Origin: Prorocentrum cordatum
Lineage: Eukaryota
Direction: 5' to 3'
NCBI GenBank assembly: GCA_963575745.1
Contig: CAUYUJ010000141.1
Span: forward strand, 62,001-117,710
DNA length: 55,710 bases
A model generated the notes under the pieces. That model did not search any database. It saw nothing but the letters and a program-made list of their open reading frames with translations, and was not told the origin of the DNA. Below are positions 25,093-55,710 of the stretch, piece after piece. The number at the start of each line of letters is the position of its first letter. Position 1 is the stretch's first letter. The position numbers were made by a program, and so were the translations under genes.

Positions 25093-26327
25093 CTGGGCGC
25101 CGGCGGTAAACCGTCAACCTTTCTTACCGCCGGGGGACTCGTAGAGCTTCCTGACAATATATAATGTGGAAACGAATTAGAGAACGACCAGTTTTCGCTT
25201 ATGAACCTCCAAAGATGACTCTAACAAAAACAGTTTCGCAGATTTCGTTCGAGCAGCAGACCGAGTTTCGAGCGATCGGTTCGACGAACGGACGCGCCTG
25301 ATGTCTCGAAATCGATTCCTGTGACCAGCAGAGCTATAGCCCTCCCCCAGCACGATTTATGTACAGAAAACCGAGAGCACTTCTCAAGATGACTCGAACA
25401 ATACGAATGGGTTCGCGAACCTAGCTCGGAGAGAAGGCCGATTTCAGAGCTCTTGATGCAACAGACGAACGCGCTTGATAAGTCTCAATCGATTTCTGTT
25501 AGTATGAGCTCTGTGGCTGCCCTATAGATCGAGTTAAGTACGAAAAACCGAGAGCGTCTGCTACAATGACTCGAATAATACGAATAGGTTTGCGACCCTA
25601 GCTCGGCTAGCAGACCGAGTTCAGACCTCTGGATTCAACAGGCGAACGCGCCTGATCAATTCTGAAGCATTAGCTGTGCTGACCAGCTCTGTAGGTGTCC
25701 TGAAGCTCGAGTTATCTTGAAAAACCGACAGCGCCTATCAAGATGACTCGAAACGGCCGTTCCGGGCCTGCCTGCTTTTTGGCCTTCAAAGTTACCCGAT
25801 CGAGCTGAGATCAAGATGGCGAGCGGGAATAAGATCGAATATCATGGGAAAAAATACTAGAGCTCTAACGAATGGTCAAATTTCGAGAACGAAATTTTCA
25901 ACCGACCAAAAGTCACCAAAAGGTCCGTCGAGATTTTTGTTGCCAACTAGCTCTCCAGCTCCCCGGAACTGGCGCCGGCGGTGAACCGTCAACCTGGTCA
26001 CCGCCGGGAACCTCGTAGAGCTCCTAGCACGCGTGAGAGTGCTCAGCATCCAAGCAGAGAGCTTCTGGAAGCATTTCTCGAAGAAGCGAACACATGATTT
26101 TTTTTCATGTCGACATGAAGTTGGTTCCGCCAAGTGTTTTGATAGTAAAACTGCATGTAGAGAGCTCACATTAAGATGCAGAGTCCCTCATAGTCATCTA
26201 CAGGTGCGAAAAATCTGCTTTCTCACAATAAATGGTCAAATATCTTTCAAAAAATCGCAAAACCACCCAAAAGTTATCACATTGTCCGTTCTGGTCGGGT
26301 CGACCAACTGGCGCCGGCGGTAAACCG

Positions 26328-26338
26328 TCAACCTGGTT
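26328..26338 (+). repeat. Target-site duplication copy 1 (TCAACCTGGTT); other copies at 32161-32171 and, as AACCTGGTT, at 38133-38141
   Basis: Direct repeats at all three retrotransposon junctions. Confidence 0.93.
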
Positions 26339-29300
26339 TGTTTGTTTGTTTGGACTCGCGTTCCCAGCTGGGTGCAGCTGGGCGAGGACCGGTCCCGCAG
26401 AAGCACACGGGCAGCGCTAAGCAGCGCTTCGGCTGCCGACAATTCACATTCTGTGACTGTAGCTCCTTCGAGGAGCCACGCGGCCTCGGCCACATCCCTC
26501 AAAACGAGGGGCACGGCACTAGAAACAGCAAACTCATGCCCAGCAGGGAAGGGGCCCACGGTTCTCGCGGAAGCGATTCCTATCTCACTGGGATTGCACT
26601 GAGTATTGATTAAGCCGATCTGAAGCCAGAAACCACATCCTGATCCTTGCTGGTCAACCCCGCCATCAAAGCCTCCCCTGATAGCGAACGGTACGAGATA
26701 AGTTTCGAATGGATATAGATAACGATGAGTTCTGTAGAATGTGCGGCCATATCTGGCCTCATGCGTCAATTCATCCGCTCGTGTATTGTCCTCCCTGAAT
26801 TCGTGTCTCCATATCTCACGTCCCAAGGCAGCAGGCCTCAGATTGAAACACGCGGCGAGCTCAAAGGTACAATCAATCATGGCAGCTGTCCTCTTGCAGT
26901 AGCCACGATTCTCACATCTCCATTTACCCTGGAGCCAGGAGCAGATAAGTAGTGAGTCACCCTTGAACTCAGCAGCAAAACCCTCTGACGATATGTCCCA
27001 CACAGTCGCGCGTTCCTGGATCATCGCATATCGTATTGCAAGCTTGGCGGACTCTTTGGGGTCATACTTGGGGTGCAGAGGGTTGGTCGCGGTATCGACC
27101 ATCTCAGCATCGGCCTTCTCACGAGCCTCAGGGGAGCCTCGAGGTCCATTAGGAGAGCCCTTCCAAGACACCACAAAGTAATCATAGACCTTAGATTTGT
27201 TGTATTGTATAAGGAGTTGCTTCCATACCTCCAAGAATTGAACCCAATCACCCCGTACAGACTCCCACCACTTTTCCCCAAAGAACTGAATGTATGGGAA
27301 CTGCCAAGACCGTCCGCCCACAGACACAGGGCCTCCACGAAGCCGTTTGCCCGAACTAGATAAGGCCCTGCTGCCGTGTTGTCGTAGAACCTCTGTTATT
27401 GTGTCGCGAGCCGTGACCCAGCCAACATTGTACATCATAAGCGCACGTCGGGAGTCTCGAAAGGCCCTCCTCCCCTTTGAGACGGCAAGCGGCTCGTCTC
27501 TGAGAGCGTGGGCAGCTCCCTCTCCAGAGGGCATCGGCTGTGAGCGGGCAATGGAACAGGCGACCTGCGAGCAGAGATCCTCCAGCCTCCTCTCCATGTC
27601 CGTAATCCTCCCCTCCGCCTCCATCACAGTCGCAGCAGGTATATCCTCCCCCCGTCCCTCCGTAAAGCGAACACGTTTAGCACGTTGAGTCGTTGATCCC
27701 TCCACCTCAACCTCCGTCCTTGCCGTCCTGTCCTCCTCCAAAGATAGTAAATATTGCCTCGTGGAGCGCATCATGCCCCAGCTCTTCCAGCACAGCATCT
27801 GCACAGCCGATGGGAAACCCCCATCGCAGAAGATTGTCCTGACACGTGTCAGTGCAGCTGGCCGCCATACCTCCCACCCCACATCTCCTGGCTTCCTCCT
27901 CCCTGACATTCTCAGAAGACACATACCCTCGAACGCATGAATAACCCTCACACACTCACTGTCAATCGTGATGGCCTCTGCTGCATATAAAAGGCGGCTC
28001 TGCACAGTCGATTGATATCGACGAAACTTCTTCACCAGAGGCAACGCCCTGCACGTAAAATACTGCACCTGCGCAAAGAACGCCCGTCGGGCCTGCTGGA
28101 CGCGCTCCTGCACATCCGTGTGGATAGCAGTGAAACTTCTGGGAATCTGATATCCCAGCACATTCAAACTCTCAACATGCTTGAAAGGTACAATCCGCGA
28201 GCCAATCTGAACCGTGACCGTATCAGTGTACTGAGTACCACACACCATCATTTCTAAACTCTCCTCCTTCCACTCCATCCCCCAATCCCTGAGAGCAGTA
28301 GTGAAGGCAGTGGCTGCTACCTGCGCCTCCGATGCTGACTTGGCGGCCAGAAAAATATTGTCGGCCCAGAGAGCATGATTCCACCGTGCGTACCGGCAGT
28401 GATCGTCATGGCATGGCATCTCGACTCCGACACCGCGCTGGTCCAGGCGAGCAATCACATCCCGCCACATAGCAATAGTGACAATAGTAAACGCGATAGG
28501 TGATTCGGTACCCCCAGTGCGGAGTGACCTGTCCCATTGCACATTTGGGATTGTCACTCCTTCAAACAGCACCGTGCATGAGGTAGATGAGAGAGGCTCC
28601 AATAACGCATACTGTAACCGTGCACTGATCCCCAGGGCCGTCATCGCTCTCGAGACTGTCGGCAGCGTCACAGCATCGAACGCCCGCTCGATGTCACAGC
28701 TGAGGAGCCACGCCGTTTGATCTCGCCCCCATGTGGAAGCATGCTGTGCAATACATTTCATGGCCGATGAAATCTCCCAGCAACGCCGTCCGCTGGTAAA
28801 ACCGTAGACCGCCATATCACTCATGAAGGGTTCCACACATCTTTCCAGTAAAATCGTCACGCACGTGAGATACCACTTGGCCAAGGTATTTCCAACAAGC
28901 AGGTTCCTTGTTTGTCGCAATGTTTCCAGTTTACTCGTTTTCGGCATAAGTGTTAGGTATACTTCCTGCCATTCCCTTGGCGTCGGGCGAAGCCCGTTGA
29001 ATATATCAGAGAAAACCTTACCAATAGAACGCACTGACCTCCACGAAAGAGCCTTGAGAAGTTCAACCGAGATGCCGTCGGGCCCACAGGCCCGTCCTGT
29101 TCGGAGTCTGCTCCGCGCCTGCAGAATAGTAGAGTATGTGATCGTAAGTGTGTTGTCCGAAGAGGCTGTTGATTGAGATGCATGGCGACGCAGTGTGGAC
29201 ACTAGCTCCCGATTGCGGGCTCTGGAGTCATCACAAGTCATACTCTGCACAGCATATCGCTCCACCTCCTCCGCCCATAGTTCCCTGTCCTCCGTCATCA

Positions 29301-30607
29301 TAGTCGTAGGACCCACATCCCCTCCCCCAGTGTCCGTCACCCTCAACTCCGTCACACGTGTCCTCCTCCCCTTCCTAGATGGTAGTGCCTCCCACTCCAC
29401 CTTCCGTCGGCGATATTCCCGCGCCAGCGGTCTGATGCGACGTCGAAGGTCTCGAGCCAACGCTCTGTCCTTCCTAGCACGTGCCTCTCTGAGTTGTACC
29501 TCCAGGTCGGCATGTTGAGGAGTCCTACTTGGTGGGAGCCCTCTGGAGTACCTGGGGGCCCTCACCGCGAGGAGTGGTAACGCATGTTCAGCGATCGTTC
29601 CAGCAATACGTTGTGGGGGCACCGTCGGGATCTGCACGTCCGCCAGGACCTGGAATTGGGCCTCCTCCCGATACGATTGGAACTCTTTGTGGCTTGTGTG
29701 GTGGCTAGGGGGGCCTTGATATTTCGTGACCTGAGGGTTCTGCATCTGGAACTCGGCGTAGACACAGGCGTGATCCGAGAAGTTGGTAGTCGGGGTCTCT
29801 GGGATCCAATCCGTTCGGCATTCAACCAAGTCACCCTCCCAGGATTGTGGGACCATGAGATAGTCAAGCACTTTTGGCGCAATAGTCTTCGCCCCAGACT
29901 TGCGTCGAGCATTGTTCGCACGATGCACGAAGGTCGGCTGCCGAGAGTACGGCGAGCCAAGAATTGACTGCCAGCAAGCGCATCCGACATAGCCACTCCT
30001 GCAGCTGAGATCGCCACATGTCCTCCTCCCACCGTCTATCCTCCGTATCATTCCCATATCCCCTCCCGTCGAGAATCTGCACAGCGCCTCCAGTCACCGT
30101 GCCTCCTGAACAGGTGATGTCGGGCGCAAGCTCAACATTAAAATCCCCTGCAATCACAAGCTCACATGTGTATCTGCACTCCTCCTTCCACCTCCGATAT
30201 GTTGTTTCGATTGTTTTCAGCATCTCAAAAGCCACCTCCAATGAACGATTCTCCGATCTATTCGGAAAGTACGCAGAGACAAGAAGGATACACGGATGAC
30301 GCAAGCACACAATAGCAAGACGAGCATGATTGTTCCAAGAACGAACTATGTTGTGACAAGACTTCCCCCTCAAAGCTATGGAAGCCTTCCTGTCACTTGA
30401 GTAAACTAGGTGCCAGCCAAGCAGCTGAATTGAATTGGACGGTAAGTGTTCACACTCCTGTAAACAGAACACTTCACAGCCGTGAGAAAGAAGTGCCCTC
30501 ATGCAAGCAAATCCCCGATCTGCTGTAGCCCCTTGTTTCATAAGATTCTGGGTGCCTAGCCTATGCTGGGCTGTGGGGCCACCAGCCCGACTGGCACCTC
30601 TGCACCG
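26339..30607 (-). pseudogene. Pol region of LINE 1: APE endonuclease, reverse transcriptase and permuted RNase H; one frameshift near 29950
   Basis: APE motifs GTQN, LQE, SAYFP, AGDFN in the 29864..30541 frame, then LDY and SDH in the 26236..30057 frame. RT motifs GPDG, LMPK, DIERAFD, LRTGGTESP, WADN, LNVLG. RNase H motifs GDS, REDNTRAD, FDGG, ECE. Confidence 0.9.
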
Positions 30608-31924
30608 TCACACCCTGCCGGCAAGACTCGCAACAAATGTGTCGTATGTAGTCGTCACACCGCTGCGCATAAGTACACCCTCCCAGATCTCGCGGTCCAC
30701 TGTCCACCCCGTATTGATACGAAAGGATGCCAGTTCCACAGGTCGGTGCTGAGGATCCTGCGGTTTGGTCCACATTGTGCTCCGTCCGTTGGGTCCCGAT
30801 CCTGTCTCCCCCCTGATCTCCATAGCCTCACCGTTGGTGCACTCGCGGTATGTCCCGTAGAAACGCCCCACAGCTCCGATATGATCACGTTTCCATGGTG
30901 GAGCTTCTATACGTACTCGGACCCGACTGGGTCGCTGTAACATGCCCTGGAACATGCTGTCATAGTCTGGAGGTGACCTCGAAACCTGAGCCGCATTCCT
31001 CTGGGGATTCGGAGTTAAAGCATCATCAAAAGCACGCTTCACGTTGTATAGTATCGAAGAGTCGGTTCCTACAATGAATTTGATTTTGATCGTACTCAAC
31101 ATCATTCTACTTCCATTCATACGTAATGTGCCCTCGTAATCGATCCTAGCTTCATCCTCTGCAGCGATGGCCGTCTTCAAATTAGTAATAAATTGTGCAG
31201 CGTCCGTATCTCTCATCATACTGGCCGAACGTGTAACCGCTGTCCCGCTCCAGTCAGTCCAGCCTGTGAGTTCCACATAGCTGGGATTGAAGCTGGATGG
31301 TCCCGAGAGTCCTGGCGGGCCTCCTCCATAGGAAGGTGCCGTGGTCGAGGCAGCACCTGATATCACACTGGGGTTCTTCTTGAGATCCTGCATTTGTCGT
31401 TCCAAGTTGCTCATCCTGATGTCGGAGGCCTCCTGACGGTTCGAGATGCTCTGAATATCGGCCCTAATTTCGACGTTTTCTTGTTGCCTAACTTTGCTCT
31501 CGAGTACGTTGAGCTCCGCGAAGGCCTTGAACCAGGATGGGGCCTCGTCCGAGACCACACTGAGTTTCTTTCGCTTCTCCTCGAGTTCCCCCAAGAGTGC
31601 CTCCTGAGGACCATTGACACGATGTTTGACATTTCGTTGGGCGTCGTCGCTAACACCCTGCATACCCTGACGCTCTCCAGCACCTTCAGGGACAACAGCC
31701 GCTTGGGCCGCCGCTTGTTGTGCCTCCGTGGGCATACCTGGGGGTCCCCCTAGAGCACCTTGTGGAGCTGGGCCTCTAGGAACAACAGGAGCGCCTCCAG
31801 ATCCTTGACCTCCAGGACTGACCTGACCTGCTGGAGCCCCTCCCACACGCCCTCCGTTGATCGTATTTCCCGCCACAGCTGCGTTGGAAGGAGTCTGCAT
31901 CATATTCATGAGCCCTGTATTCAT
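30608..31924 (-). CDS. ORF1-like region of LINE 1 (Gly/Pro-rich N-terminus, coiled coil, probable RRM-like domain)
   Basis: Open frame from the first ATG at 31924, with a heptad-like segment (LEEKRKKL...MSNLERQMQDLKK). Motifs FNPSYVELTGW and EAPPWK are shared with LINE 2 (FTPTFIQLTGW, EPAPWK). Confidence 0.75.
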   Translation of the reverse strand: MNTGLMNMMQTPSNAAVAGNTINGGRVGGAPAGQVSPGGQGSGGAPVVPRGPAPQGALGGPPGMPTEAQQAAAQAAVVPEGAGERQGMQGVSDDAQRNVKHRVNGPQEALLGELEEKRKKLSVVSDEAPSWFKAFAELNVLESKVRQQENVEIRADIQSISNRQEASDIRMSNLERQMQDLKKNPSVISGAASTTAPSYGGGPPGLSGPSSFNPSYVELTGWTDWSGTAVTRSASMMRDTDAAQFITNLKTAIAAEDEARIDYEGTLRMNGSRMMLSTIKIKFIVGTDSSILYNVKRAFDDALTPNPQRNAAQVSRSPPDYDSMFQGMLQRPSRVRVRIEAPPWKRDHIGAVGRFYGTYRECTNGEAMEIRGETGSGPNGRSTMWTKPQDPQHRPVELASFRINTGWTVDREIWEGVLMRSGVTTTYDTFVASLAGRV

Positions 31925-32386
31925 ATTCACAAATGAAGATGGGACAGCACAATGACAATCACTATCTGGTGTGGAGTCGGCAGTATTCAATCTCCCGTCC
32001 AGTGGAAGGTCACGCACAATTTGCTCGGTATCCTGAAGTTGCCTCTTCCGAGACGCCCTCTCAACAGCAGAATCTGGTCTCTCAACAGCGTAATCCTGTG
32101 AGTCCTGCAAATAAGGTACAGTCGGGGAAATATCCTCCAGCTGGAAACGTCTACAGCTCCTCAACCTGGTTTTTTGAGTTTGAGTCAGGGCGCGGACAGC
32201 TGTGACAGCTGAGCCCTAAGACTCCCAAACGGAGCACAGGGTAGCTGGAGAGGGCAACTCTTATCATCACACTGCCGAGCCACTGAGGCATAGGCAACGG
32301 AATAGGATGCAGGAACAAGGAAAAGGATGCAATACAACATGTGAAAATGTAAAGGTGTTGGAGAGCTCCAAGCAAGATGAAGTGAG

Positions 32387-35300
32387 TCAGCTGCTTGGAT
32401 GAAAGATGCTACCCAAAATGTGCTCCACGGCCATACAGAGCCGTTGTGCTGCAATCATCTCACAAAACATGACAGAAGCAGAGGCATCAAGCGAGACAGC
32501 TTCCTCCGCCACCAACTGCCACGTCCCGTGTACACACAAATCTATACACCATCCTGCAGCACATCCCTCCACAGAGCGACCTCCGTCGAAGAATCCACGG
32601 AGGCCGTCTAGTTTTGTTTTACTCGCATGTTCAATAAGTGAGGTATGGAACGTAACGTAACTATTTTTGGTTCTGGCCAACCATGTCAGCCTGTCAGCTC
32701 TTTCGTTTCCTTCTCGATAGATCCACCTGAACATATTGTGGCCCCAACTCGGAGGCCTCATACCATACAACACAGAGATATGCTCCAGCCTATTTTGAAT
32801 GTCGCCAAGAATGTGCTTGTAGATAATATTGGATGTTGCCCAGAGACCGTTAATCCAATTCACCCCTGTGGCGGAGTCCCCAATCAATTCCATCGGTATC
32901 GAGTCCCGAGGCTCCGCATTCCACTCCGATGCATGTTCATTAATGTACGCAAGTCGTTTCTCCATCTTCTCGTCCTCCTTCCTTTGCTGCTCCTCCGTCT
33001 TCTCCCTCTCCTCCTCCTCCCTAGCATATCCCGCAGGTTGTGCATGTTTAAAGTAACAGTACCCCCACGCCTCCTCCATGTTAGTAACATCCAGTGCCCG
33101 CTTCAGAAATTCTTTCCATCCCTGACGTGAAAAGGATAACGTGTGATACCAATCCTTCCCTGATACCAACTCGAAAATGTAATGGAAGTTTCTCAACGCC
33201 AGTGGTCTCCCCCCCTCATGCCGACGCGTCATTAATGGGCGTTCTTTCCAAGGCAGCGATGCAATGAAGGCCTGCCGTCGGTCAGTCCACTCCCCCGACC
33301 ATGCAAAAATACATTCTCTAGCCTGCATATGCGAGTCCCCTGTACTACGATGCTGAGGTGGAGCCACCCGTCGCCGCTTGTTTGCAGCGATTTCCTGCGA
33401 CGGCAACTCAACAGAGGAACGCTTTTGCGACAGAGAATCCTGAGATGGATGGAATGTCTTTGCACGCTTATGCATCTGGGAAATCAGATTGCGCCGATGC
33501 GCGGGTAATTGTGTCTGAGAACCAGGGAGCTCAAAGGAATCAACAGCATGCATCGTCTCACACACGTCAGGATGACATCCCATTGATGTCGAGCACGCAA
33601 TACTTGGTAGCACATACATGGGTTCATCCTGACGTTGTCTCTTGGCCGGCGGTGGCTCACACGCAGCAAAGACGTTGGGGCCAGGCTTGCCTGAAGAATC
33701 AAAAGTACCTGGAGGAATCTGTGCGGGTGTTGGGTTCAGGCGTTTCACAGTAAACGTACAGTCCTGAGCCCACTGCCACTGACGAAACAAGAATAGCTGC
33801 ACAAGAGACGGCCGTCCCAATTCCAGGAGCATACGCCGCCCACGTTTGTACAAGTTGCATAAGTATATACTCCAATCCATGTCGGCAGGTTTCGGGCGGC
33901 GTACCATAGAACACAATATTTTACCTTCCCACGTGTGCAACTGTTTCAAAGTGTGGTGGTCCGCTGGCATGCCTTCAACACCGAAAAGTACAAAACTACG
34001 CAACCTAGATTCATAATGCTTGATTTTCTTCTGGAAGGGTACAGCACGATTCGTATAAAACTTGCGGAACTGGTTAAATCGCTTCCAACCCCGAGCCAAT
34101 TTCCAAGCCACATCATGGTGTTTGTCAGTCTTGGTCGTGACCAGGCAACCCAGGCACTCCATTTCAGAGCATCGCGGAAGACACAGGGTACCGAGATCGT
34201 TCACCTGACAACGAGGTTCCCCGTCGAGGCGCCTTCACAGTCCTCCCCAAAGGCAAGATAGTGTAGTGAGGAATCTTTCCATCTGAAACCGTGCGTATAC
34301 AGCTGAGCCGAGAAGTCCCCCACCATACGTGTGAGCACAGTCTTTGATTTCGAGAAAAGCAAAATGTTATCGGCCCAGAGCGCATGAGTAAGATACCTCC
34401 CACCAGCCTCCACCCCCAAATCGTACCCCAACTTCACCTCCTCCCAATTCAGTACAATCCTATCCCACATCAGTAGTGTCACACACTTCCACAGGAAGGG
34501 GGCCTCCACACTACCAGTACGTACACATGCATCCCAGGGAATACCCGTCGCCGTGGAGTCCTGAAAGGTAAAGTCCGCTGTGTCCAGGACACTGGGAGCG
34601 AGTAGCGCCAACGCAAGGTCATTGGGGAACCCAGGGATGGCATCCAAGGCCCGACTGGCCTTCTCAACCGTGACGTTATCAAAGGCAGTCTGCACAACTA
34701 ATGACGCGAGGTGCAGGGTCTCATCTTTCCCCCACTCCAGAGCGTGTGTGGTGGCATGCTTAAGCATGGCAGTGATCTCGTGCGTGCGCCTTCCCTTGCA
34801 AAATCCGTAGTTATGTAGATATTGTGGGACCCTTTTCAGATAACCTTCAGCAATCTCAACCAAACATGAAGTATACCATTTGCTTAGGCTGCTAAGTAAG
34901 ACTAGAGCACGAGTATCAGACAACTTAGTGATATCTTTAGCTTTCGGCATCAACACCACAAGCAACTCAGACCAAATCCGAGGAGTAGGATACCGTTGAA
35001 GATACTGGTCTTGGAATAACCGAAGAATATGACGCAAACCTACCCACGTGATACGTTTCAACATAGAAGGAGAAACTCCGTCCTTACCCACCGCCTTACC
35101 ACACTTTAAGCGTGATCGTGCCTGTAACAATACGGACATGGAAATGGGGGAGACGTCCACTGTGTTCGTGTCCTGCAACCTCCTCCTCCTCCTCCTCTCC
35201 TCGATACACTCCACGTTACGTATCCCTTGCGCAGCACAGTGGTACTTGGCGAACCCGTGAGCATAGAGCGCCTTCTCCCACAACTCCCTATCCTCCGTGA

Positions 35301-39089: not shown

Positions 39090-39461
39090 CAGACACACAC
39101 ACGCACCAGACACACGAACGCAATCGCGAACACCCACAGAAAAGACGCACTGAGAACAGAGACAGTCACACAAGCAAACGCACACACACACACGCACAAA
39201 CGAACACACTTACAGCCACACCCACGTCACACGAACGAACACTTACAAACACACGCACGAGCCCCCCCCCGACCCCCTCCCGGCGCTCCGGAGGGGGGAG
39301 GCACCGCCGCATCTTGGGGCCGGCCCTCCCCCCACTCAAACCACTCCGCCCTCGCGGGGCGCCGGAGGAAGGGGGAGGGGGAGCGCGGGGTTGCGAGCGC
39401 CGCGCGCGCACACACACACGCACTGACACACACACGCACACACACACGCATACACACGCGC

Positions 39462-39515
<54 letters not shown>

Positions 39516-39544
39516 CGGACAGACAGACAGACCGACAGACAGAC

Positions 39545-39579
<35 letters not shown>

Positions 39580-39632
39580 GACAGACAGACAGACAGACAG
39601 ACACACACACACACGCACAGACAGCCAGACAC

Positions 39633-39671
<39 letters not shown>

Positions 39672-42557
39672 CACACAGGCATACAGACACACAGACACAC
39701 AGACACACAGACACACAGACACACGGACACACAGACACCCGGGCAACCAGACACACAGACACACAGACACACAGACACACAGACACACAGACACACAGAC
39801 AGACACACAGACAGACAGACACACACACACACACAGACACACAAACACAGAGACCCACAGACACACAGACACACAGACACACAGACACACGGACACACAG
39901 ACACACAGACAACACACACACAGACAGACAGACACACGGCCATACAGACACAAAAAACACACGGACACACAGACACACAGACACACAGACACAGGCACAG
40001 AGACACACAGACACACAGACACACAGACACACAGACACACAGACACACGGACACATAGACACACAGACACACAGACACACAGACACACAGAAACACAGAC
40101 ACGTAGACACACAGACACACAGACATACAGACACACAAATACACAGACACACAGGCACACAGACACTCAAGCACACAGACACACAGAGCACCAGATTCAC
40201 AGACACACAGACACACAGAAACACAGACACACGGACACACAGACACGCAGACACCCAGACACGCAGACACGCAGACACACCAACACACAGACACGCAGAC
40301 ACAAGCACACACAGACACGCAGGCACAAAGGCACACAGGCACACAGACACACAGACACCCAGACAACCAGACACACAGACACACAGACAAACAAATACAC
40401 AGACACACTGACACACTGACACACAGACGCACAAAAACACGGACACACAGACACACAGACACATAGACACACAGACACATAGACACACAAACACACTGAC
40501 TGGCAGACAGAACCCCCCCCCACCCCAACCCACCACACCCCCTTTCCGGCACTCCGGAGGGGGGAGGCACCGCCCCATTTTGGGGCCGGCCCTCCCTCCA
40601 CTCCAACCACTCCGCCCTCGCGGAGCGCCCGAGAAAGGGGAAGGGCGGGGGGGGGCCAGCACGGGGCTGCCAGCGCCGCGCGCGCACGCACACACACACA
40701 CTGACACACACACACGCACGCATACACACACACGCAAATACACGCGCACAGACACACAGACAGACAGACACACACACACAGACGCACCGAAAGACAACAC
40801 AGACAGATCCACAGGCAGACAGACACACAGACACACAGACAGACGGACACGCAGACACACGGACACACAGACACGCAGACACAAGGACACACAGACACAC
40901 AGCCAACCAGTCACACAGACACACAGACATCCAGACACGCAGATACTCAGACACACAAACACGCGGACACACAAACACACAGCCATGCACACACACAGAC
41001 ACGGACACACGGACACAAAAGACACACGGACATACAGACACGCAAACCCAGACACACAGACACACAGACACACAAACACACAGACACACAGACACACAAA
41101 AACACAGACACACACGCACACAGACACACGGACACACAGACACACAAACACACAGACACACAGGCACACAGACACACGGACACACGGAACACAGACACCA
41201 ACACACAGACACACAGACACACCAACACAAAAACACACAGACACACAGACACACAGACACACAGACACACCGACACACAGACACACAGAAACACAGACAC
41301 ACAGACACACGGACACGCAGTCACGCAGACACACAACCACACGGACACACACACACGGACACACAGACACGCAATCACACAGACACACAGACACAGAAAC
41401 AACCAGACACACAGATGCACAGACACACAGACACACAGACACACAGACACGCGGACACACTGACAGACTGACACCCAGACACCAAGACACACAGACACAC
41501 ATACACATAGACACACAGACACACTGACACACTGACACACTGAAACACAGACACACAGCCACACTGACACACGGACACACGGACACGCAGACACACAGAC
41601 ACATAGGCCGCCAGACACACAGATACACAGACACAAAAACACACGGACACAAAGACAGACAGACAAACACACACACACAGGAACAGGGACACACAGACAC
41701 AGAGACCCACAGACCCACAGACACACAGACGCACAGACAAGCGGACACTCAGACACACAGACACACAGACACACAGAAACACAAACACACAGAAAGACAG
41801 AAAGACAGAAACACAGGCACACAGGCACACAGACACACAGACACACAGACACACAGACACACAGACACACAGACACACAGACACACAGACACGCAGACAC
41901 ACAGACACACAGACATAAAGACACACAAATACAAAGACACACAGACACACAGACACTCAAGCACACTGACACACAGATGCACAGACACACAGACAAACGG
42001 ACACTCAGACACACAGACACACAGAAACACAGACACACAGACACACAGGCACACGCATACACGCACACAGACACACAGACCCAAGGACACACCGACACGC
42101 AGGCAAAAAGGCACACAGGCACACAGACACACACAGACAGACACACAGACACACACAAACGGATACACCGACACACTGACACACTGACACACAGACACAC
42201 AGACGCAAAAAAGAAACAGACACACAGACACACAGACACACAGACACACAGACACACAGAAAAAGGGACACCCAGACACACAGACACACAGACACACAGA
42301 CACACAGAGACACAGACACATTGACACACTGACACACTGACACACAGAAACAAAGACACGCAGACACACAGAGACACACACACACAGACACACAGACTCA
42401 CAGACACACAGACACACAGACAAGGCAACACAAACACACAGACACACAGGAAGACACGCAGACAGAAACACAGGCACACATACAAACAGACACACAGACA
42501 CACTGACTCACAGACACACAGACACACAGACACACAGACACACAGACACACAGACAC

Positions 42558-42588
<31 letters not shown>

Positions 42589-45451
42589 TAGACACACAGA
42601 CACAAAGACCCACAGACACACAAGCACACAGACACACAGACACACGGACACACGGACACACGGACAAACTCTCACACAGACAGACAGACATACGGCCATA
42701 CAGACACAAAAGACACACGGACACACAGACACACAGACACACGGACACACAGACACACCGGCAATCAGACATACAGACACACAGACAGACAGACACACAG
42801 ACACACAGACACACAGACACACGGACACATAGACACACAGACACACAGACACACAGACAAACAGACACACAGAAACACAAACACGGAGACACACAGACAC
42901 ACAGCCATACAGACACACAAATACACAGACACACAGACACACAGACACTCAAGCACACAGACACACAGACACTCAAGCACACAGACACTCAGACACACAG
43001 ACACATAGACACACGGACACACAGACACGCAGACACACAGACACGCGGCTACGAAGGACACACAGATACGCAGGCACAAAGGCACACAGGCACACAGACA
43101 CACAAACACCCAGACAGACAGACACACAGACACACAGACAAACGGATACACAGACACACTGACACACTGACACACAGACGCACAAAAACACCGACACACA
43201 GACACACAGACACATAGACACACAGACAGGCAGACAGAGCCCCCCCACCCACCACACCCCCTTCCAGCGCTCCGGAGGGGGGAGGCGCCGCCCCATTTGG
43301 GGGCCGGCCCTCCCTCCACTCCAACCACTCCGCCCTCGCGGAGCGCCCGTAAGGGGGGGGGGGGGGGCCGGCAGCGCGGGGCCGCCAGCGCCGCGCGCGC
43401 ACACACTCACACACTGACACGCACACACGCACGCGCACACACACACGCAAATTCACGCGCACAGACAGACAGACAGACACACACACACAGACGCACAGAA
43501 AGACAAACACACAGACAGATCCACAAACAGAGAGACACACAGACACGCAGACACACACACACACACAGACACGCAGACACAAGGATACACAGACACACAG
43601 ACAACCAGTCACACAGACAACCAGTCACACAGACACACAGAGACCCAGACACGCAGACACTCAGACACACAGACACACGAACACACAAACACACAGACAT
43701 ACAAACACACAGACACGAGCACACGGACACAAGGACACAAAAGACCCGGACATACAGACACACAGACAAACAGACACAGAGACAAACAGACACAGAGACA
43801 CACAGACACACAGAAACACAGGCACACAGACACAAAGACACACAGACACACATACACACAGACACGCGAACTTACAGACACACAGAAACACGGACACACA
43901 AACACACAGACACTCAGACACACAGACACACTGACACACGAACACACAGACACCAACACACAGACACACAGACACACCAACACAAAAACACACAGGACAC
44001 ACAGACATGCAGACACACAGACACACAGAGACACATACACACAGACACACAGACACATGATTACACGGACACGCTGACACACAGACACACAGACACACAC
44101 GCACACACACACGGACCCACAGACACGCAGACACACAGACACAGAGACATACAGACACACAAATACAAGGATAAGCACTCACCCAGACACACAGACACAT
44201 AGACACATAGACAAACAGACACACTGGCACTCTGACACAGTGACACACTGACACACATAAACATAGACACACAGACACACTGACACACGGACACACAGAC
44301 ACACAGGCAATCAGACATACAGACACACAGACAGACAGACAGACAGACACACACACAGACACACAGGCATACAGACACACAGACACACAGGCACACAGAC
44401 ACACAGACACACGGACACACAGACACACAGGCAACCAGACACACAGACACACAGACACACAGACACACAGACACACAGACAGACAGACACACAGAAAGAC
44501 AGACAGACACACACACAGACACACAAACACAGAGACCCACAGACACACATAAACACAGACACACAGACACACGGACACACGGACACACAGACAACACACA
44601 CACACAGACAGACAGACAGACACACGGCCATACAGACACAAGCACACGGACACACAGACACAAAGACACACAGACACAGGCACACAGACACACAGACACA
44701 CAGACAAACAGACACAAAGACACACAGACACACAGACACACGGACACACGGACACATAGACACACAGACACACAGACACACAGAAACACAGACACGCAGA
44801 CACACAGACACACAGACACACAGACATACAGACACCCAAATACACAGACACACAGACACTCAAGCACACAGACACACAGAGCACCATATTCACACACACA
44901 GAAACACAAACACACAGACACACGGACACACAGACACGCAGACACACAGACACGCAGACACGCAGACACACCAACACACAGACACGCAGACACAAGGGCA
45001 CACAGACACGCATGCACAAAGGCACACAGGCACACAGACACACAGACACCCAGACACCCAGACACACAGACACACAGACAAACAGATACACAGACACACT
45101 GACACACTGACACACTGACACACATACACACAAAAACACAGACACACAGAAGCATAGACACACAGACACATAGACACACAGACACACTGACTGGCAGACA
45201 GAGCCCCCCCCCCCCCCCACCCACCACACCCCCTTCCGGCGCTCCGGAGGGGGGAGGCACCGCCCCATTTTGGGGCCGGCCCTCCCTCCACGGACCAACC
45301 ACTCCGCCCTCGCGGAGCGCCCGAGAAAGGGAGAGGCGGGGGGGGGGCCAGCGCGGGGCTGCCAGCGCCGCGCGCGCACGCACACGCGCACGCACGCGCG
45401 CTGACACGCACGCGCGCACGCGCGCACGCACACGCACGCAAATGCACGCGC

Positions 45452-45494
<43 letters not shown>

Positions 45495-47314
45495 CACACA
45501 CAGACGCACAGAAAGACAACACAGACAGATCCACAGGCAGACAGACACACAGACACACAGACAGACGGACACGCAGACACACGGACACGCAGACACGCAG
45601 ACACAAGGATGCACAGACACACAGCCAACCAGTCACACAGACACACAGACATCCAGACACGCAGATACTCAGACACACAGACACGCGGACGCACGAACAC
45701 ACAGCCATGCAGAAACACAGACACGGACACACGGACACAAAAGACACACGGACATACAGACACACAAAACCCAAACGCACAGACACACAGACACACAGAC
45801 ACAAAGACACACAGAAACACAGACACACATACACACATACACACGGATACACAGACACACAAACACACAGATTCACAAGCACACAGACACACGGACACAC
45901 AGTACACAGACACCAACACACAGACACACAGACACACCAACACAACAACACTCAGACACACAGACACACAGACACACAGACACACAGGCACACAGACAAA
46001 CAGACACACGGACACGCGGTCACGCAGACGCACGCCCACACGGACACGCACACGGACACACAGACACGCAAACACACAGACACACAAACACAGAAACAAC
46101 CAGACACACAGATGCACAGACACACAGACGCGCAGACACACAGACACGCGGACACACTGACAGACTGACACCCAGACACCAAGACACACAGACACACAGA
46201 CACATAGACACACAAACAGACTGACACACTGACACATTGACACACTGACACACAGAAACACAAACACACAGCCACACTGACACGCGGACACACGGACACA
46301 CAGACACACAGGCCACCACACACACACAGATACACAGACACAAAAACACACTGGCACAAAGACAGACAGACAAACGCACACAGGCACAGGGACACACAGA
46401 CACACAGACACACAGACACACAGACACAGAGACCCACAGACCCACAGACACACAGACGCACAGACAAGCGGACGCTCAGACACACAGACACACAGACACA
46501 CAGACACACAGAAACACAGACACAGAGAAACAGAAAGACAGAAACACAGGCACACAAGCACACAGACACAAAGACACACAGACACACAGACACACAGACA
46601 CACAGACACACAGACACACAGACACGCAGACACACAGACACACAGACGTACAGACACACAGCTACAAAGACCCACAGACACACAGACACTCAAGCACACT
46701 GACACACACACAGCACCAGACACACAGACACACAGACACTCAGACACACAGACACACAGAAACACAAACACACAGACACACAGGCACACGCATACACGCA
46801 CACAGACACACAGACACGAGGACACACAGACACGCAGGCAATAAGGCACACAGGCACACAGACACACAGACAGACAGACACACAGACACACACAAACAAA
46901 TACACCGACACACTGACACACTGACACACAGACACACCGACGCAAAAAAGAAACAGACACACAGACACACAGACGCACAGACACACAGACACACAGAAAC
47001 AGGGACACCCAGACACACAGACATACAGACACACAGACACACAGACACACAGACACACAGACACACAGACACAATGACACACTGACACACTGACACACAG
47101 AAACACAGACACGCAGACACACAGAGACACAAACACACAGACACACAGACTCACAGACACATTGACACACAGACACGGCCACACAAACACACAGACACAC
47201 AGGAAGACACGCAGACAGGAACACAGGCACACATACAAACAGACACACAGACACACTGACTCACAGACACACAGACACACAGACACACAGACACACAGAC
47301 ACACAGACGCACAT

Positions 47315-47345
<31 letters not shown>

Positions 47346-49445
47346 CACAAAGACACACAGACACAAAGACCCACAGACACACAGACACACAGACACACAG
47401 ACACACGGACACACAGACACACGGACAAACTCTCACACAGACAGACAGACAGACGGCCATAGAGACACACAGACACACGGACAAACAGACACACAGACCC
47501 ACAGACCCACAGACACACAGACACAGAGACACACGGACACATAGACACACAGACACACAGACACACAGACAAACAGACACACAGAAACACAGAAACACAG
47601 ACACGGAGACAAACAGACACACAGCCATACAGACACACAAATACACAGACACACAAACACACAAACACTCAAGCACACAGACACACAGACACTCAAGCAC
47701 ACAGACACACAGACACACAGACACATAGACACACGGACACACAGACACGCAGACACACAGACACGCGGCCACGCAGACACACCCACACACAGACACGCAG
47801 GCACAAGGACACACAGACACGAAGGCACAAAGGCACACAGGCACACAGACACACAAACACCCAGACAGACAGACACACAGACACACAGACAAACAGATAA
47901 ACAGACACACTGACACACTGACACACAGACACACAGACACACAGACGCACAAAAACACAGACACACAGATACACAGACACACAGACACACAGACAGGCAG
48001 ACAGAGCCCCCCCACCCAACACACCCCCTTCCAGCGCTCCGGAGGGGGGAGGCGCCGCCCCATGTTGGGGCCGGCCCTCCCTCCACTCCAACCACTCCGC
48101 CCTCGCGGAGCGCCCGGAAGGGGGTGGGGCGGCAGCGCGGGGCTGCCAGCGCCGCGCGCGCACACACTCACACACTGACACGCACGCGCACACGCGCACA
48201 CACACACGCAAATTCACACGAACAGACAGGCAGACACACACACAGACGCACAGAAAGACAGACTCACAGACAGATCCACAGGCAGACAGACACACAGACA
48301 CGCAGACACACACACACAAAGACACGCAGACACAAGGATACACAGACACAGAGACAACCAGTCACACAGACACATACACACCCAGAAACGCAGACACTCA
48401 GACACACAGACACACGAACACACAAACACCCAGACATACAAACACACAGACACGACCACACGGACACACGGACACAAAAGACACGGACGCACAGACACAC
48501 AGACAAACAGACACAGAGACACACAGACGGACATATACACAGACACACAGACACACAGACACACAGACACACATACACACAGACACACGAACTCACAGAC
48601 ACACAGAAACACAGACACACAATCACTCAGACACTCAAACACACAGACACACGGACACACGAACACACAGACACCAGCACACAGACACACGGACACACCA
48701 ACACAAAAACAAACAGGGATCACAGACATTCAGACACACAGACACACAGACACACATACACACAGACACACAAACACACAGACACATGGTTACACGGACA
48801 CGCTGACACACAGACACACAGACACACACACGGGCCCACAGACACACAGACGCACAGACACACAGACACATGGGCACACGGACACGCTGCCACACAGACA
48901 CACGGACGCACACAGACACACAGACACACAGACACACAGACACAGAGACATACAGACACACAAATACAAGGATACACAGAAACACAGACACACAGACACA
49001 CGGACACACTGACAGACGGACACCCAAACACCCAGACACACAGACACACAGACACATAGACACACAGGCAACCAGACATACAGATACACAGACACACAGA
49101 CACACGGACACAAAAAAAGACAGAAAAACACACACAGGCACAGGGACGCACAGATACAAAAACACACAGACACACAAACACACAGACAAAAAGACACGCA
49201 TACACGCAAAAACTTGGACATTCAGACACACAGACACACAGACACACAGACACACAGACACACAGAAAGACAGAAAGACAGAAACACAAGCACACAGACA
49301 CACAGACACAGAGACACACATACACACAAACACACAGACAATCAAGCACACTGACACACGCAGCACCAGACACACAGACACGCAGACACTCAGACACACA
49401 GACACACAGACACACAGACGCACAGAGACGCAGTCACACGCAGAC
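38310..49445. repeat. 11-kb compound microsatellite (ACACAGAC)n/(AGAC)n/(AC)n with higher-order structure
   Basis: Degenerate octamer array, almost T-free on the plus strand, punctuated by a conserved GC-rich spacer at about 38570, 39260, 40500, 43230, 45190, 47995 and, partially, 49445. Confidence 0.95.
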
Positions 49446-52229: not shown

Positions 52230-52970
52230 GCACATACCCGAACAGCCCATAGTGGTCGGACATGTGGAACTCGGAACCCTCGAAGAACACCTACCCTTTC
52301 CCTACCAAGTGCACCTCGGACCAGAGATCCGCTCCAAAGAGCACCCGGTCACGTCTCTGGCCGACAGCCCCCCTCTCGCCGAGCCCCGAATAGAACTTAT
52401 TGCCGGGGCAACCCCAGGATCGGCCCTCATACCATGCGTCCCTCAGACGCAACTGCTCCACGGCTGCCTGCACCTGCGCATCCGTGCTGTTCATGTCGCC
52501 CACGATGAGCAGCCGATGGCATTCGTCCCCGCACTTCGCCACAATCTTCCCAAGTATCGCACGACGCCGTTCCATGACGCGTCCGTGGGCAGGTGCACCG
52601 CCGCCACGTGCACATGCCCATCGCCGCCGGCGCCGCCGTCTCCGGGCACCTGGACACGGCACAGCACGCACGGATCCTGCCCTGGCACAGCCACAGATTC
52701 CGCCCGCAGACCGTGCCTGACGTACAGATGCACATACCCCCTGGGCTCGTGCGCCTGCGCAACGCCCGCCAATTGAAACTCCCCTGACAGCTCCTCGTAC
52801 GCACCCCCGCCCTCGCACTCCTGCAAGGCAACGACGTCACACCCGCGCGCCTGCCTCCAACGGAGCACCTCGCCAAGAACCGCGGCGCGCTGATCCCGCG
52901 CGGACCAGGAATGCGGCGCCACGGCAGCGCGATGCCCACCAGCAATGTTCCACGTCGCAAACGACAACGT
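52230..52970 (-). pseudogene. EEP/APE-type endonuclease domain; frameshift near 52580 and in-frame TAG at 52291-52293
   Basis: Motifs FATWNI, DVVALQE, AAVHL, IVGDMN, DRV and SDHYGL in canonical order across three ORF fragments. Confidence 0.88.
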
Positions 52971-55710
52971 CGACGCGCCCTCAAGGCCCTCTCCCTCGCC
53001 TGCCTCGTCCACGGCCCTCCCCCCCACACCCGCCATCGCCCGGCCCGCGCCCGCCGCACTGGGCCCAGACACATCCGCGCGCGGGGCGACGCCGAAGAGG
53101 TCCAGAGCGTCACGGCACTCCTGGTCCAAGAGCAACAACTCCATGACATCCCGCGCACCCCGCGCGCCGACGCCCGCGCGGAAAGACGCGAACGCGCCCC
53201 GCAACGCACGACGCACGTCTGGCACGAACGACTCCGCCGACGCATCCAGCACCCTGGCACCGGCCCCGCGACCAACGTGGCCCAGCAGGAGCCCGAGTGC
53301 GCCGGCGATCCTCTGCGAAGGCACCCGAACGTGCGGCGCCTCCCCAAACTCTACCACGGGTGGCGGGCGCCGCCCATCACTGGCCTGTATCGGCCGCAGC
53401 AGCGCGTCGATATTCCGAGCGATTCGCCCTGCAACCGCCTCCCTGCGGCCTCGATCGTACACGCACACGGTCAGAGACTCGGCACGCCCGAGCGCCTCCC
53501 CCGCCCGACCAGCCTGGACGCGCACGAAGATCCAATCCAGGGGAACGCCAGACACGCTCAGAGCGTCCACGGCAGCAACCATCAGCAACTCCTTCTTATC
53601 GCTGACGCAGCTCGCGTCCCAAACGCTCGTCCAGTTGTGCGCCACCCGAGCAAAATGCTCTGGGGTCTCCTCCGCGCCGACGTGCTCGCCCACCTTTGCC
53701 GAGGCCACAGTCATCGACAGGTCTAACCCTGAGCACAGCTGTCGCGCCACCTTCAGGAAGAACACCAACGCCTGACGCTCCAGTCTGCCCTCCGCCAGAG
53801 CGCTCTCCGACCGCACGTTCACGACCCACTTGTCCATCCGCAGCGCGCAGCCACCGCGAACGTCCCCGAACGCATCCTTCATCTTCCTGGCCGCCTTATC
53901 CAAGCTCCCGTGCAGTCTCGGCGGCACCAGCGCACCCATGGCCTCCTTCACAGCGCTCATGTGCAGCGGGCCCAGGCACGGTTCCACGACATCGAACACG
54001 CGACCATCCCACCGCCCACACGCCACCCACCGATCCACCATCATGTCAGCGACACGGCCCAACAACTCCACTCCGTCGTCGTCCGGGCGCTCCCGCGACA
54101 GCCGGGCAGCAGCATCCCTCAAACGCCCCCGCAACTCTTCCACCGTGTCAACACCAGCGAAATCCTCTGCATCCCCACCCGCCAGCTCCCGCGCGGCCTC
54201 GCGTTCCTCCAACGTCACACCGCGCACCCTCTTCCGGTCCAGGAGCCTGTCAGCCACGGCGGTCAGACGCCGCCGCGCGACGTCATCACCCCCCGCCTCG
54301 GCATCGACAACCTCAGCCAACGCGGACACGCACGGCGCGCCGTCCTCACCCCAGAGCCAAGTGTCATCATCCACCACTCTGTTCAGACCTCTGAGCCTCT
54401 CCGCCTGCGCCGCACGGACGGTCTCGAGACGGCCCAACAATCTCCCCGCCGCACACCTCTCCTCTGCGGTCCACAAATCCGCCTCGCAGTACCCATACAT
54501 CCGCAACGTTGACGAAGCGCGCGCCTCCAACCGCAGCTCGAACCGACGGCGCTCCCGGAACGCCGTCGTGTGCCTGGCCCGCATGAAGTCCGCGTACTCC
54601 GGCAGGTCTTCCTCGAACACCAAGTCCCACGGATGCCTGACGCGCGTCGTTGCGACGAACCCGATCCCAGCGACGGCCGCGGTCTTCGCCGACATGTGCA
54701 CGCGGACTTTCGCCAACGTCATCCCCTGCGCCTTCCAGTGCGTCAGAGCCCACGCCAGCTGCAGCGGGTAGTTCTCGCGCGCGAGGCCGTCCTCCGTCGT
54801 GGACGATACAGTCTGCCTCCAGATGGGCACCCAGTTCTTGCGCACAGGATCGTTCTTGAATAAAGACCGCGGCTCGCCATTCTCGTCTTTTCCCAGATCG
54901 ACGTCGTCGAACTCGACAAAAACACAAATGGGCGCCTGCAAGTCCGGGCGCGCACTGTTGTGCGGGTCCGCCCCTTCCGGCCACATGTACCCGCGCAGCG
55001 TGCCCATCGCCCCGTTCATCAACCCCGCCTCGACCCATAAGTTCTGCGTCAGCAGCACGCGCGCCCCTTCACACATGTGAAGCTCGTTCTCGATCCCTCG
55101 GAAATCGTCGGCCGCCATCTCTTCCGGCCGAGATTTACTTTTATCCTTCCAATTGTGATAGGCGCGCAGAGACGCAATGGGCTTGCCACTGGCAGCCGCC
55201 ACCTGGCACAGCCTCTCCAGGTTCACCCTATCCGCGCCGCAGGAACCCGACGCCCGATCCTTCCTGCCATCCATCAGCAGCGGCGCCGTCTCGAACGCTG
55301 CGAGCTCCTCCCTGCCCTCCTTCGTCATCTGCAGCACCGACCTTTTCCGGCGCCTCAACCACGCATGATCCGACTGGTCCCACGTGCACTGCGCCATTCC
55401 TTTGGTCACCTCCAGAAAACGATCGGCATCCCGCCGGTACTCCGCCTGCCGCTCGGCGGACAGACCCTCCTTCTTCCCTCTCCATCTGTGCACGCGCCGT
55501 AGCACGGCGACGTCCTGGAACGTATTGCGCACAAACTGGCCCGTGGCCACCAACTTCTCCGTGCTCCACGCATCGTCTGGAGTGCGCTCCGCCCCCCTCG
55601 GCTTATTTTTTCCCATGCCCCTCATACTTGCCCATTCGATACAACGGATCGTCGCCGATGGGCGGCGCCTGCTGCGGATCTCCTGCCAGCACGACATCCT
55701 TCCCGCCGAG
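52970..55710 (-). CDS. PIF1-family SF1B helicase C-terminal half plus downstream domains (N-terminus outside the window)
   Basis: LRRVHR, GARVLLTQNLWVEAGLMNGAMG, YPLQLAWALTHWKAQGMTL and FVATTRV correspond to PIF1/Helitron helicase motifs IV-VI. The frame is continuous with the EEP N-terminus. Confidence 0.88.

Follow-up and report, generated by a model that had tools for sequence, protein, structure and literature searches.

Two LINEs with RNase H motifs in swapped order

We analysed a stretch of DNA of 55,710 nucleotides (nt) from Prorocentrum cordatum (assembly GCA_963575745.1, contig CAUYUJ010000141.1, positions 62,001 to 117,710 of the forward strand), hereafter the window, and within it two retrotransposons of the non-LTR type (LTR, long terminal repeat), the long interspersed nuclear elements (LINEs) LINE 1 and LINE 2, which are arranged head to tail along the minus strand in repeat-rich, eukaryote-like DNA (Table 1). 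LINEs reverse-transcribe their RNA where they insert, at the target site; in elements that encode an RNase H, this enzyme strips the RNA template from the resulting hybrid. A reverse transcriptase (RT) domain is present in both elements, as RVT_1 is matched above its cut-off in each. The apurinic/apyrimidinic endonuclease (APE) and RT parts of the two share 30% identity across 566 residues (E 9e-65), which indicates two distinct elements of one clade. From the evidence below, we judge it likely that both are APE-type non-LTR elements whose second open reading frame (ORF2) ends in a circularly permuted type 1 RNase H of archaeal-like (RVT_3-like) character.

The tails of both elements carry the motifs in the order GDS, RExNxxAD, FDGG and then xCEL or xCEM. 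All eight motifs quoted in an earlier note on this DNA were found in place on the minus strand, and its reading that the C-terminal half of RNase H precedes the N-terminal half in both LINEs is supported, the swapped order being common to the wider family as well. The four conserved carboxylates (D, E, D and D of the DG, xAEL, DS and NxxAD motifs) are present in both window copies, as the note had said, and are invariant or nearly so in the family alignments A1 and A5 described below. In a direct BLASTP comparison, the LINE 1 and LINE 2 tails are 28% identical over 153 residues (E 2e-16), and the alignment covers three of the four motifs, which both elements carry in one order (GDS, NxRAD, FDGG).

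The swapped order is shared by a family of relatives

A HMMER search with the 286-residue LINE 1 tail as query, counted as cluster representatives, returned 122 relatives at E <= 1e-3, 49 at E <= 1e-10 and 14 at E <= 1e-30. Several relatives represent a full ORF2 of approximately 1300-1450 residues (P0009, P0018 and P0075), and in these the match to the tail lies at the extreme end of the protein. The RExNxxAD motif occurs in 96 of the 122; among these 96, GD[SN] stands 45-70 residues upstream in 76 and [FYW]DG[GSA] 25-70 residues downstream in 80. Where at least 130 residues precede GDS, a DG-like motif upstream of it was seen in one of 21 proteins, and there it sits in an unrelated helical module. 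Past the Glu of helix A, the reading frame continues for a median of 28 residues (17-79, n=61). Taken together, the rotated order in the copies and in the family identifies the domain as a permuted variant and not as an ordinary member of RNase HI.

Two alignments were used to assess conservation. Alignment A1 contains 25 full domains, chosen for showing the motifs, and its invariant positions are E102, N104, A107, D108, D144, G145 and E218; alignment A5 contains 22 longer tails, chosen by length, in which the invariant positions are G146, D147, R201, E202, N204, A207 and D208, with D244 and E318 close to invariant. The Arg of the R-E-x-N motif is at least 90% conserved in A1 (R101) and invariant in A5 (R201). 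The earlier note had argued for function from conservation in two distant elements: the 122 relatives are a better footing for that argument than the two window copies, each with a frame break.

Ten clusters were looked up, and their named members are a Prorocentrum cordatum protein (P0112) and a protein from a transcriptome labelled Pyramimonas sp. CCMP1952 (P0004), the latter 83% identical to LINE 1. Another homologue search, with residues 960-1285 of the LINE 1 frame P0001, gave no match among proteins of 706-2249 residues, and a tblastn search of plasmids with the relative P0110 gave chance matches only, within an efflux gene (E 0.9).

Each half is related to archaeal-type RNase HI

Searched against the PDB, the A1 profile matched 3u3g best (E 1.3e-5), followed by 4e19, 4h8k, 3aly, 2ehg and 3hst. 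All six RNase H matches at E < 0.01 are RNase HI or H1 enzymes whose sources are archaea, M. tuberculosis and a metagenome of compost, and we take all six chains to be archaeal-type RNases H. Profile positions of approximately 39-121 align with the C-terminal halves of all six (RNase H residues 69-138 in the match at E 1.3e-5), and against 4e19 three stretches match in swapped order, with profile positions 137-158, 41-68 and 96-116 falling on chain residues 69-92, 133-160 and 177-197, respectively. For the first half, hhalign of A1 against RVT_3-type proteins gave E 9.9e-8 at a probability of 94% (positions 44-118 to 59-122).

The second half was searched with A4, a profile of 28 sequences and thus broader than the 10-sequence profile A2. 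Among 177,635 PDB sequences, its sole match at E <= 10 was RNase H1 4e19, residues 69-127 (E 0.024). Using hhalign, A4 aligned with residues 4-60 of E. coli-type RNase HI (E 1.7e-4), placing FDGG on TDGS (D10) and AEL on MEL (E48), and with RVT_3-type proteins (E 4e-4, positions 11-80 to 1-63).

The Pfam family matched is RVT_3 and not RNase_H, and RVT_3 appears at E <= 1 in 12 of the 25 A1 members, the first halves of the relatives mapping to RVT_3 positions of approximately 52-123. Residues 38-105 of the LINE 2 tail match positions 64-119 of the 123-position RVT_3 profile (E 0.048). Of 40 relatives scanned, only P0110 reaches the gathering score, at 21.8 bits against a cut-off of 21.6, in two stretches of which the best places residues 162-220 on profile positions 2-57; P0101 shows RVT_3 (residues 71-87 to profile 107-123) and then RNase_H (residues 105-166 to profile 6-56). 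RVT_3 was not found in E. coli K-12 and five other genomes, and phmmer of the LINE 1 tail alone against the PDB gave only a chance match to MamP (E 2). The archaeal-type PDB matches, RVT_3 as the Pfam family and the conserved Arg of R-E-x-N bear out the archaeal/plant-type style that the earlier note had ascribed to the motifs.

Swapping the halves restores one colinear alignment

We then compared native and re-ordered sequences with a canonical profile. The query set comprised 54 family members with both halves, picked by motif and spacing; for the reference, four RVT_3-type prokaryote genes were expanded to 120 canonical 'ribonuclease HI family' proteins in 200 columns. In hhalign, the first half alone matched canonical columns 111-176 (score 46.2, E 7.1e-8) and the second half alone columns 49-117 (score 27.9, E 3.8e-4). 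The native order gave two non-colinear matches, to columns 111-176 (score 48.2, E 4.8e-7) and to columns 46-116 (score 28.3, E 1e-3), which became a single colinear alignment when the halves were swapped (columns 49-176, 126 columns aligned, probability 97, score 67.6, E 1.2e-10). This comparison had been set beforehand as a refutation test, and the claim survived it, the re-ordered sequence scoring better against the RNase H profile than the native one. Reversed sequences served as controls, and matched columns 100-160 for the first half (score 14.0, E 0.1) and columns 95-103 for the second (score 13.3, E 0.17).

The half alignments pair FDGG with DGSA (D10), AEL with AEl (E48), GDS with tDS (D70) and RExNxrAD with RHRNteAD (D134). 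The helix A Glu, which was not a selection criterion, is present in 52 of the 54 sequences.

These comparisons also bear on another explanation, by which the motifs resemble RNase H in this order by chance, or because the two copies have decayed or been rearranged. The frame breaks in both copies and the weakness of single-sequence Pfam matches speak for it, but the same order recurs in 122 relatives from independent sources, and the profile-profile E values of 1e-7 to 1e-10 stand against 0.1-0.17 for the reversed controls; we find this explanation hardly credible.

The tail is predicted to fold as one domain

AlphaFold2 modelled A1 as one confident alpha/beta domain, with a predicted local distance difference test (pLDDT) score of 83.5 and a predicted template modelling (pTM) score of 0.81, and with both halves mostly above 90 pLDDT. 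The helices (H) and strands (E) run in the order H13-28, E40-46, H49-56, H64-84, E96-98, H105-115, linker, E134-148, E151-164, insertion, E197-208 and H214-236; in the model these are the extra helix, strand 4, helices B and D, strand 5, helix E, strands 1, 2 and 3 and helix A, that is, five main strands and four matching helices within one domain. The linker is mostly coil with a short strand (E120-123), and residues 121-130 have a mean pLDDT of 71. The LINE 1-type insertion between strands 2 and 3 is missing from the second half of LINE 2.

Both elements have a conserved module between their RT and RNase H parts, at 27100-27330 in LINE 1 (P0001 residues of approximately 920-1000) and at 33000-33300 in LINE 2. 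Its consensus is R..GG...G.R.W...F....G..WW......Y..F, it is predicted to be all-helical, and no Pfam match to it was found. A 352-residue AlphaFold2 model that includes this module has helices only upstream of the domain, and thus no hidden unit of strands 1-3 that could give a canonical-order domain. A degenerate upstream strand 1-3 unit completing the first half was ruled out on this prediction, and the idea of the extra helix as a relic of an earlier helix A found no support, hhalign giving E 0.32 with the match elsewhere on the profile.

If the halves were not folded together in one chain, they could be what is left of two separate RNase H domains, or could pair between two ORF2 molecules in a domain-swapped dimer. 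Sequential fold searches do match RNase H with the first half only, and the linker and the insertion are modelled with low confidence. The model nevertheless shows one compact domain at the scores given above, and no predicted upstream strands are able to complete the first half; nor is there anything downstream to complete the second, because the frames of 61 relatives end right after helix A. The halves are, moreover, complementary and non-overlapping where they match the canonical profile, at columns 49-117 and 111-176, and we regard separately folded halves as very unlikely.

Points that weigh against a permuted RNase H

The reading of the tails as a permuted RNase H has several observations against it. 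On the sequence side, the evidence for homology of the second half is only moderate: the 10-sequence profile A2 had no match in the PDB, A4 found nothing at E <= 10 in the E. coli K-12 chromosome, and among 28 single second halves two match RNase_H or RVT_3 (E 0.03 and 0.047), level with chance families. The window tails themselves fall under the Pfam RVT_3 cut-off, LINE 2 scoring 14 bits against 21.6, and the LINE 1 tail is without any Pfam RNase H match. The conservation counts for D and N in the 54-sequence set are partly circular, since the motifs themselves had guided the choice of sequences. When a narrow E. coli-type reference was used, the gain in score from re-ordering was small (20.3 to 27.6), and the alignment covered one half only; hhalign against the E. 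coli rnhA reference proteins gave E 0.034 and 0.11, and because the rnhA relatives are all at least 79% identical, this reference is too narrow. Both window copies also carry frame breaks and so may be dead.

On the structural side, the placement of the four acidic residues in one site and the strand order of the sheet are presumed. Foldseek with the whole model found nothing at E <= 1e-3, with 3aly at rank 12 (probability 0.75). The best VIA Z scores, 4.9 and 4.7, belong to unrelated alpha/beta folds, and the RNase H chains (3u3g, 4h8k, 3aly, 2ehg, 4e19 and 3hst) attain no more than Z 3.2-3.6, restricted to model residues 31-123, though with the highest identities in the VIA tables (22-27%). 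The fold searches comprised Foldseek, VIA-wide and VIA on the Foldseek top 1000, and their aligners depend on sequence order. Weak whole-domain matches are what sequential aligners would be expected to give on a permuted fold, and they neither confirm nor contradict it.

Proposed topology, function and origin

In the permuted RNase H that we propose, the chain would start at strand 4 and pass through helices B and D before strand 5 and helix E; a linker of approximately 20-30 residues would lead on to strands 1-3 and, last, helix A. The cut would open the loop that connects helix A to strand 4, and the variable linker would bridge the former termini. The halves would pack as the usual five-stranded sheet (order 3-2-1-4-5), bringing the D of FDGG, the E of AEL, the D of GDS and the D of NxxAD into one putative two-metal site. 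The domain may degrade the RNA of the RNA:DNA hybrid made in target-primed reverse transcription, as is thought for other LINE RNase H domains. The catalytic positions and the archaeal-type Arg are kept, from which we infer a working RNase H with a rotated chain topology.

The permuted fold might instead be real but no longer an RNase H, serving as a nucleic-acid-binding or structural module or as a nuclease on another substrate. Such a change of role would fit the distance of the domain from canonical profiles, with the window tails under the Pfam cut-off, as well as the extra conserved N-terminal helix and the helical module in front of it; degenerate RNase H folds, according to passages in PMC4408406, are kept as 'tether' domains in retroviruses. 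The four carboxylates together with the Arg, Glu and Asn of RExN are, however, invariant or nearly so, which is unexpected for a non-catalytic relic, and a loss of RNase H activity seems rather unlikely to us.

As to how an active permuted RNase H may have arisen, the probable route is a tandem duplication of RNase H followed by loss of the outer halves. No relic of such a duplication was detected in the upstream AlphaFold2 model or by hhalign of the extra helix.

Relation to known RNase H systems

Archaeal-type RNase HI is the kind of type 1 RNase H that lacks the basic protrusion. Among the structures matched, 2EHG and 3ALY are Sulfolobus tokodaii RNase HI, 3U3G and 4H8K are LC11-RNase H1, 4E19 is Halobacterium RNase H1 and 3HST is the N-domain of Rv2228c. 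The LINE domain shares with these enzymes (RVT_3, PF13456) the same four carboxylates, the R-E-x-N-x-x-A-D motif and the set of secondary-structure elements, at 22-27% identity over the matched half. It differs from them in chain order, which is 4-B-D-5-E-linker-1-2-3-A in the LINEs and 1-2-3-A-4-B-D-5-E in the archaeal type, and in adding a conserved N-terminal helix and, in LINE 1-type members, an insertion of approximately 30 residues between strands 2 and 3. It also lies within a retrotransposon polyprotein, whereas archaeal-type RNase HI is a cellular enzyme.

In 2013, Smyshlyaev et al. reportedly described L1-type LINEs from plants and oomycetes that carry an Archaea-like RNase H. Passages in PMC5348765 and PMC4408406 state that L1-type LINEs of plants and oomycetes acquired such a domain (aRNH) after RT, and PMC4408406 gives a conserved catalytic Arg as a mark of the archaeal type. 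E. coli-type enzymes have a His at this place. As far as these passages go, the aRNH LINEs likewise carry an archaeal-type RNase H downstream of RT, not the usual LINE type, with the same conserved Arg. The main texts of both papers, from which the string 'permut' is absent, describe aRNH in canonical order, whereas the halves are swapped in the LINEs analysed here; the hosts also differ, being plants and oomycetes there, and Prorocentrum cordatum and the source of a transcriptome labelled Pyramimonas sp. here.

A dual RNase H ('tether-RNH') is described for retroviruses and Tat LTR retrotransposons in passages of PMC4408406. There, a second domain was gained beside the first, which is the tandem intermediate that permutation by duplication needs. 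By the same passages, the retroviral and Tat elements hold two whole domains, one of them degenerate, in contrast to the elements of one domain, rotated, in the present LINEs.

The literature searched yielded no account of a circularly permuted RNase H in nature, supplements and subscription journals being outside its scope, so that an earlier description may exist; 'permut' is also absent from the main text of a survey of the RNase H-like superfamily (PMC3985635). On balance, we lean towards the broader proposal of a marine-protist (dinoflagellate-associated) LINE clade with a natural, catalytically active permuted RNase H1, the first such permutation, probably reached via a tandem intermediate and with altered tethering to RT.

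Genomic setting of the two elements

In LINE 1, the endonuclease frame follows ORF1 in the same reading frame, with one stop codon between them (30605-30607). Its Exo_endo_phos match (frame 29864-30604) is under the cut-off (E 0.026), and the relative P0018 gives E 0.05 for this family. The endonuclease and RT frames of LINE 1 overlap by 230 nt (29864-30093) in different frames, and P0003 and P0002 of LINE 2 overlap by 34 nt (34201-34234), again in different frames. With one such frame break per copy, the window copies may be dead, or the breaks may be assembly indels.

Homology of the flanking repeat stops at 26337/26338, where it meets the (CAAA)4 of LINE 1. The DNA of the element ends at (CAAA)4 without a stop codon of its own, so the ORF2 frame crosses these units into the flanking repeat and stops at 26236. 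The relative P0008 also seems to read through a similar 'NTQKTK' stretch. Upstream, approximately 170 nt (32216-32386) separate the stop of LINE 2 (32387-32389) from the start of the LINE 1 ORF1 frame, the LINE 2 stop being upstream.

Elsewhere in the window, positions 1-26338 hold 178-bp satellite arrays mixed with other repeat units at a spacing of approximately 1.4-2.4 kb; the arrays reach to approximately 26.3 kb, and the 3' end of LINE 1 adjoins one interleaved repeat unit. Directly upstream of both LINEs is an imperfect (ACACACAG)n microsatellite of approximately 10 kb and 1250 copies (39410-49439), with extreme strand skew and an AT skew of up to 0.9. An open frame of 1072 residues on the minus strand (52494-55709), in a region of 68% GC, continues past the window end; it has weak matches to Exo_endo_phos (E 4.7e-5, residues 918-1041) and to a Pif1 2B-domain (E 0.0032), and may be part of another mobile element.

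Table 1 Features of LINE 1 and LINE 2 in the window (AF2, AlphaFold2)
Feature	Window position	Strand	Residues and contents	Basis
LINE 1 ORF1 frame	30608-32215	-		ORF list
LINE 1 endonuclease (APE-like) frame	29864-30607	-		ORF list; weak Exo_endo_phos
LINE 1 long frame P0001	26236-30093	-	RT at residues 416-650	RVT_1 E 8.9e-13
LINE 1 element-encoded ORF2 part	26339-30093	-	P0001 residues 1-1251; RT, helical module, putative permuted RNase H	
LINE 1 conserved extra helix before domain	27013-27060	-	family consensus AKRxAxxxE..W	AF2 H13-28; conserved in A5
LINE 1 RNase H first half (canonical C-terminal half)	26752-26979	-	strand 4 (GDS, D1046), helices B and D, strand 5, helix E (RExNxxAD, D1107)	AF2 elements; PDB profile match; hhalign
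LINE 1 motif GDSLLICSWLQGKW	26961-26920	-	residue 1045	P0001
LINE 1 motif HEFREDNTRADEL	26805-26767	-	residue 1097	P0001
LINE 1 linker, old C-terminus (helix E end) to old N-terminus (strand 1)	26698-26751	-		AF2; variable in A1
LINE 1 RNase H second half (canonical N-terminal half)	26389-26697	-	strand 1 (FDGG, D1143), strand 2, insertion, strand 3, helix A (TECEL, E1217)	AF2 elements; A4 profile; hhalign
LINE 1 motif FDGG	26670-26659	-	residue 1142	P0001
LINE 1 low-confidence insertion between strands 2 and 3	26509-26604	-		AF2
LINE 1 motif TECELSAA	26454-26431	-	residue 1214	P0001
LINE 1 3' end, four CAAA units	26337-26352	-	translated within ORF	sequence; flank repeat homology
LINE 2 frame P0003	34201-36690	-	endonuclease-like part and most of RT (residues 591-803)	RVT_1 E 1.8e-7
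LINE 2 frame P0002	32387-34234	-	stop 32387-32389	translation
LINE 2 RNase H first half	32669-32899	-	GDS D453; YREGNERAD D514; putative boundaries, set by alignment to LINE 1	motifs; RVT_3; BLASTP to LINE 1
LINE 2 motif GDSATGVNWINGLW	32881-32840	-	residue 452	P0002
LINE 2 motif YREGNERADRL	32719-32687	-	residue 506	P0002
LINE 2 RNase H second half	32408-32614	-	FDGG D550; FCEM E592	motifs; first row of A4; translation
LINE 2 motif FDGG	32590-32579	-	residue 549	P0002
LINE 2 motif FCEMIAA	32467-32447	-	residue 590; stop 25 residues after	P0002

Implications

Few folds in nucleic-acid enzymology are as well studied as RNase H, which is central to retroelements and retroviruses as one of their modules. 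The finding concerns specialists in retroelements and in protein evolution. Standard searches for domains and folds largely overlook this one, since the window tails have no Pfam match above the cut-off and Foldseek gives nothing at E <= 1e-3. Annotations of protist LINEs from this clade therefore probably record them as lacking RNase H, which would be an annotation blind spot. The domain has only approximately 230 residues, which puts its structure and enzymology within easy reach. A conserved natural permutant, if true, would mean that a new chain topology is compatible with this fold in vivo, and permutation would join duplication and degeneration as an outcome in the RNase H evolution of retroelements. 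The tethering of RNase H to RT would then change, the chain entering at strand 4 near the active site and not at strand 1, and the spacing between polymerase and RNase H cuts could alter.

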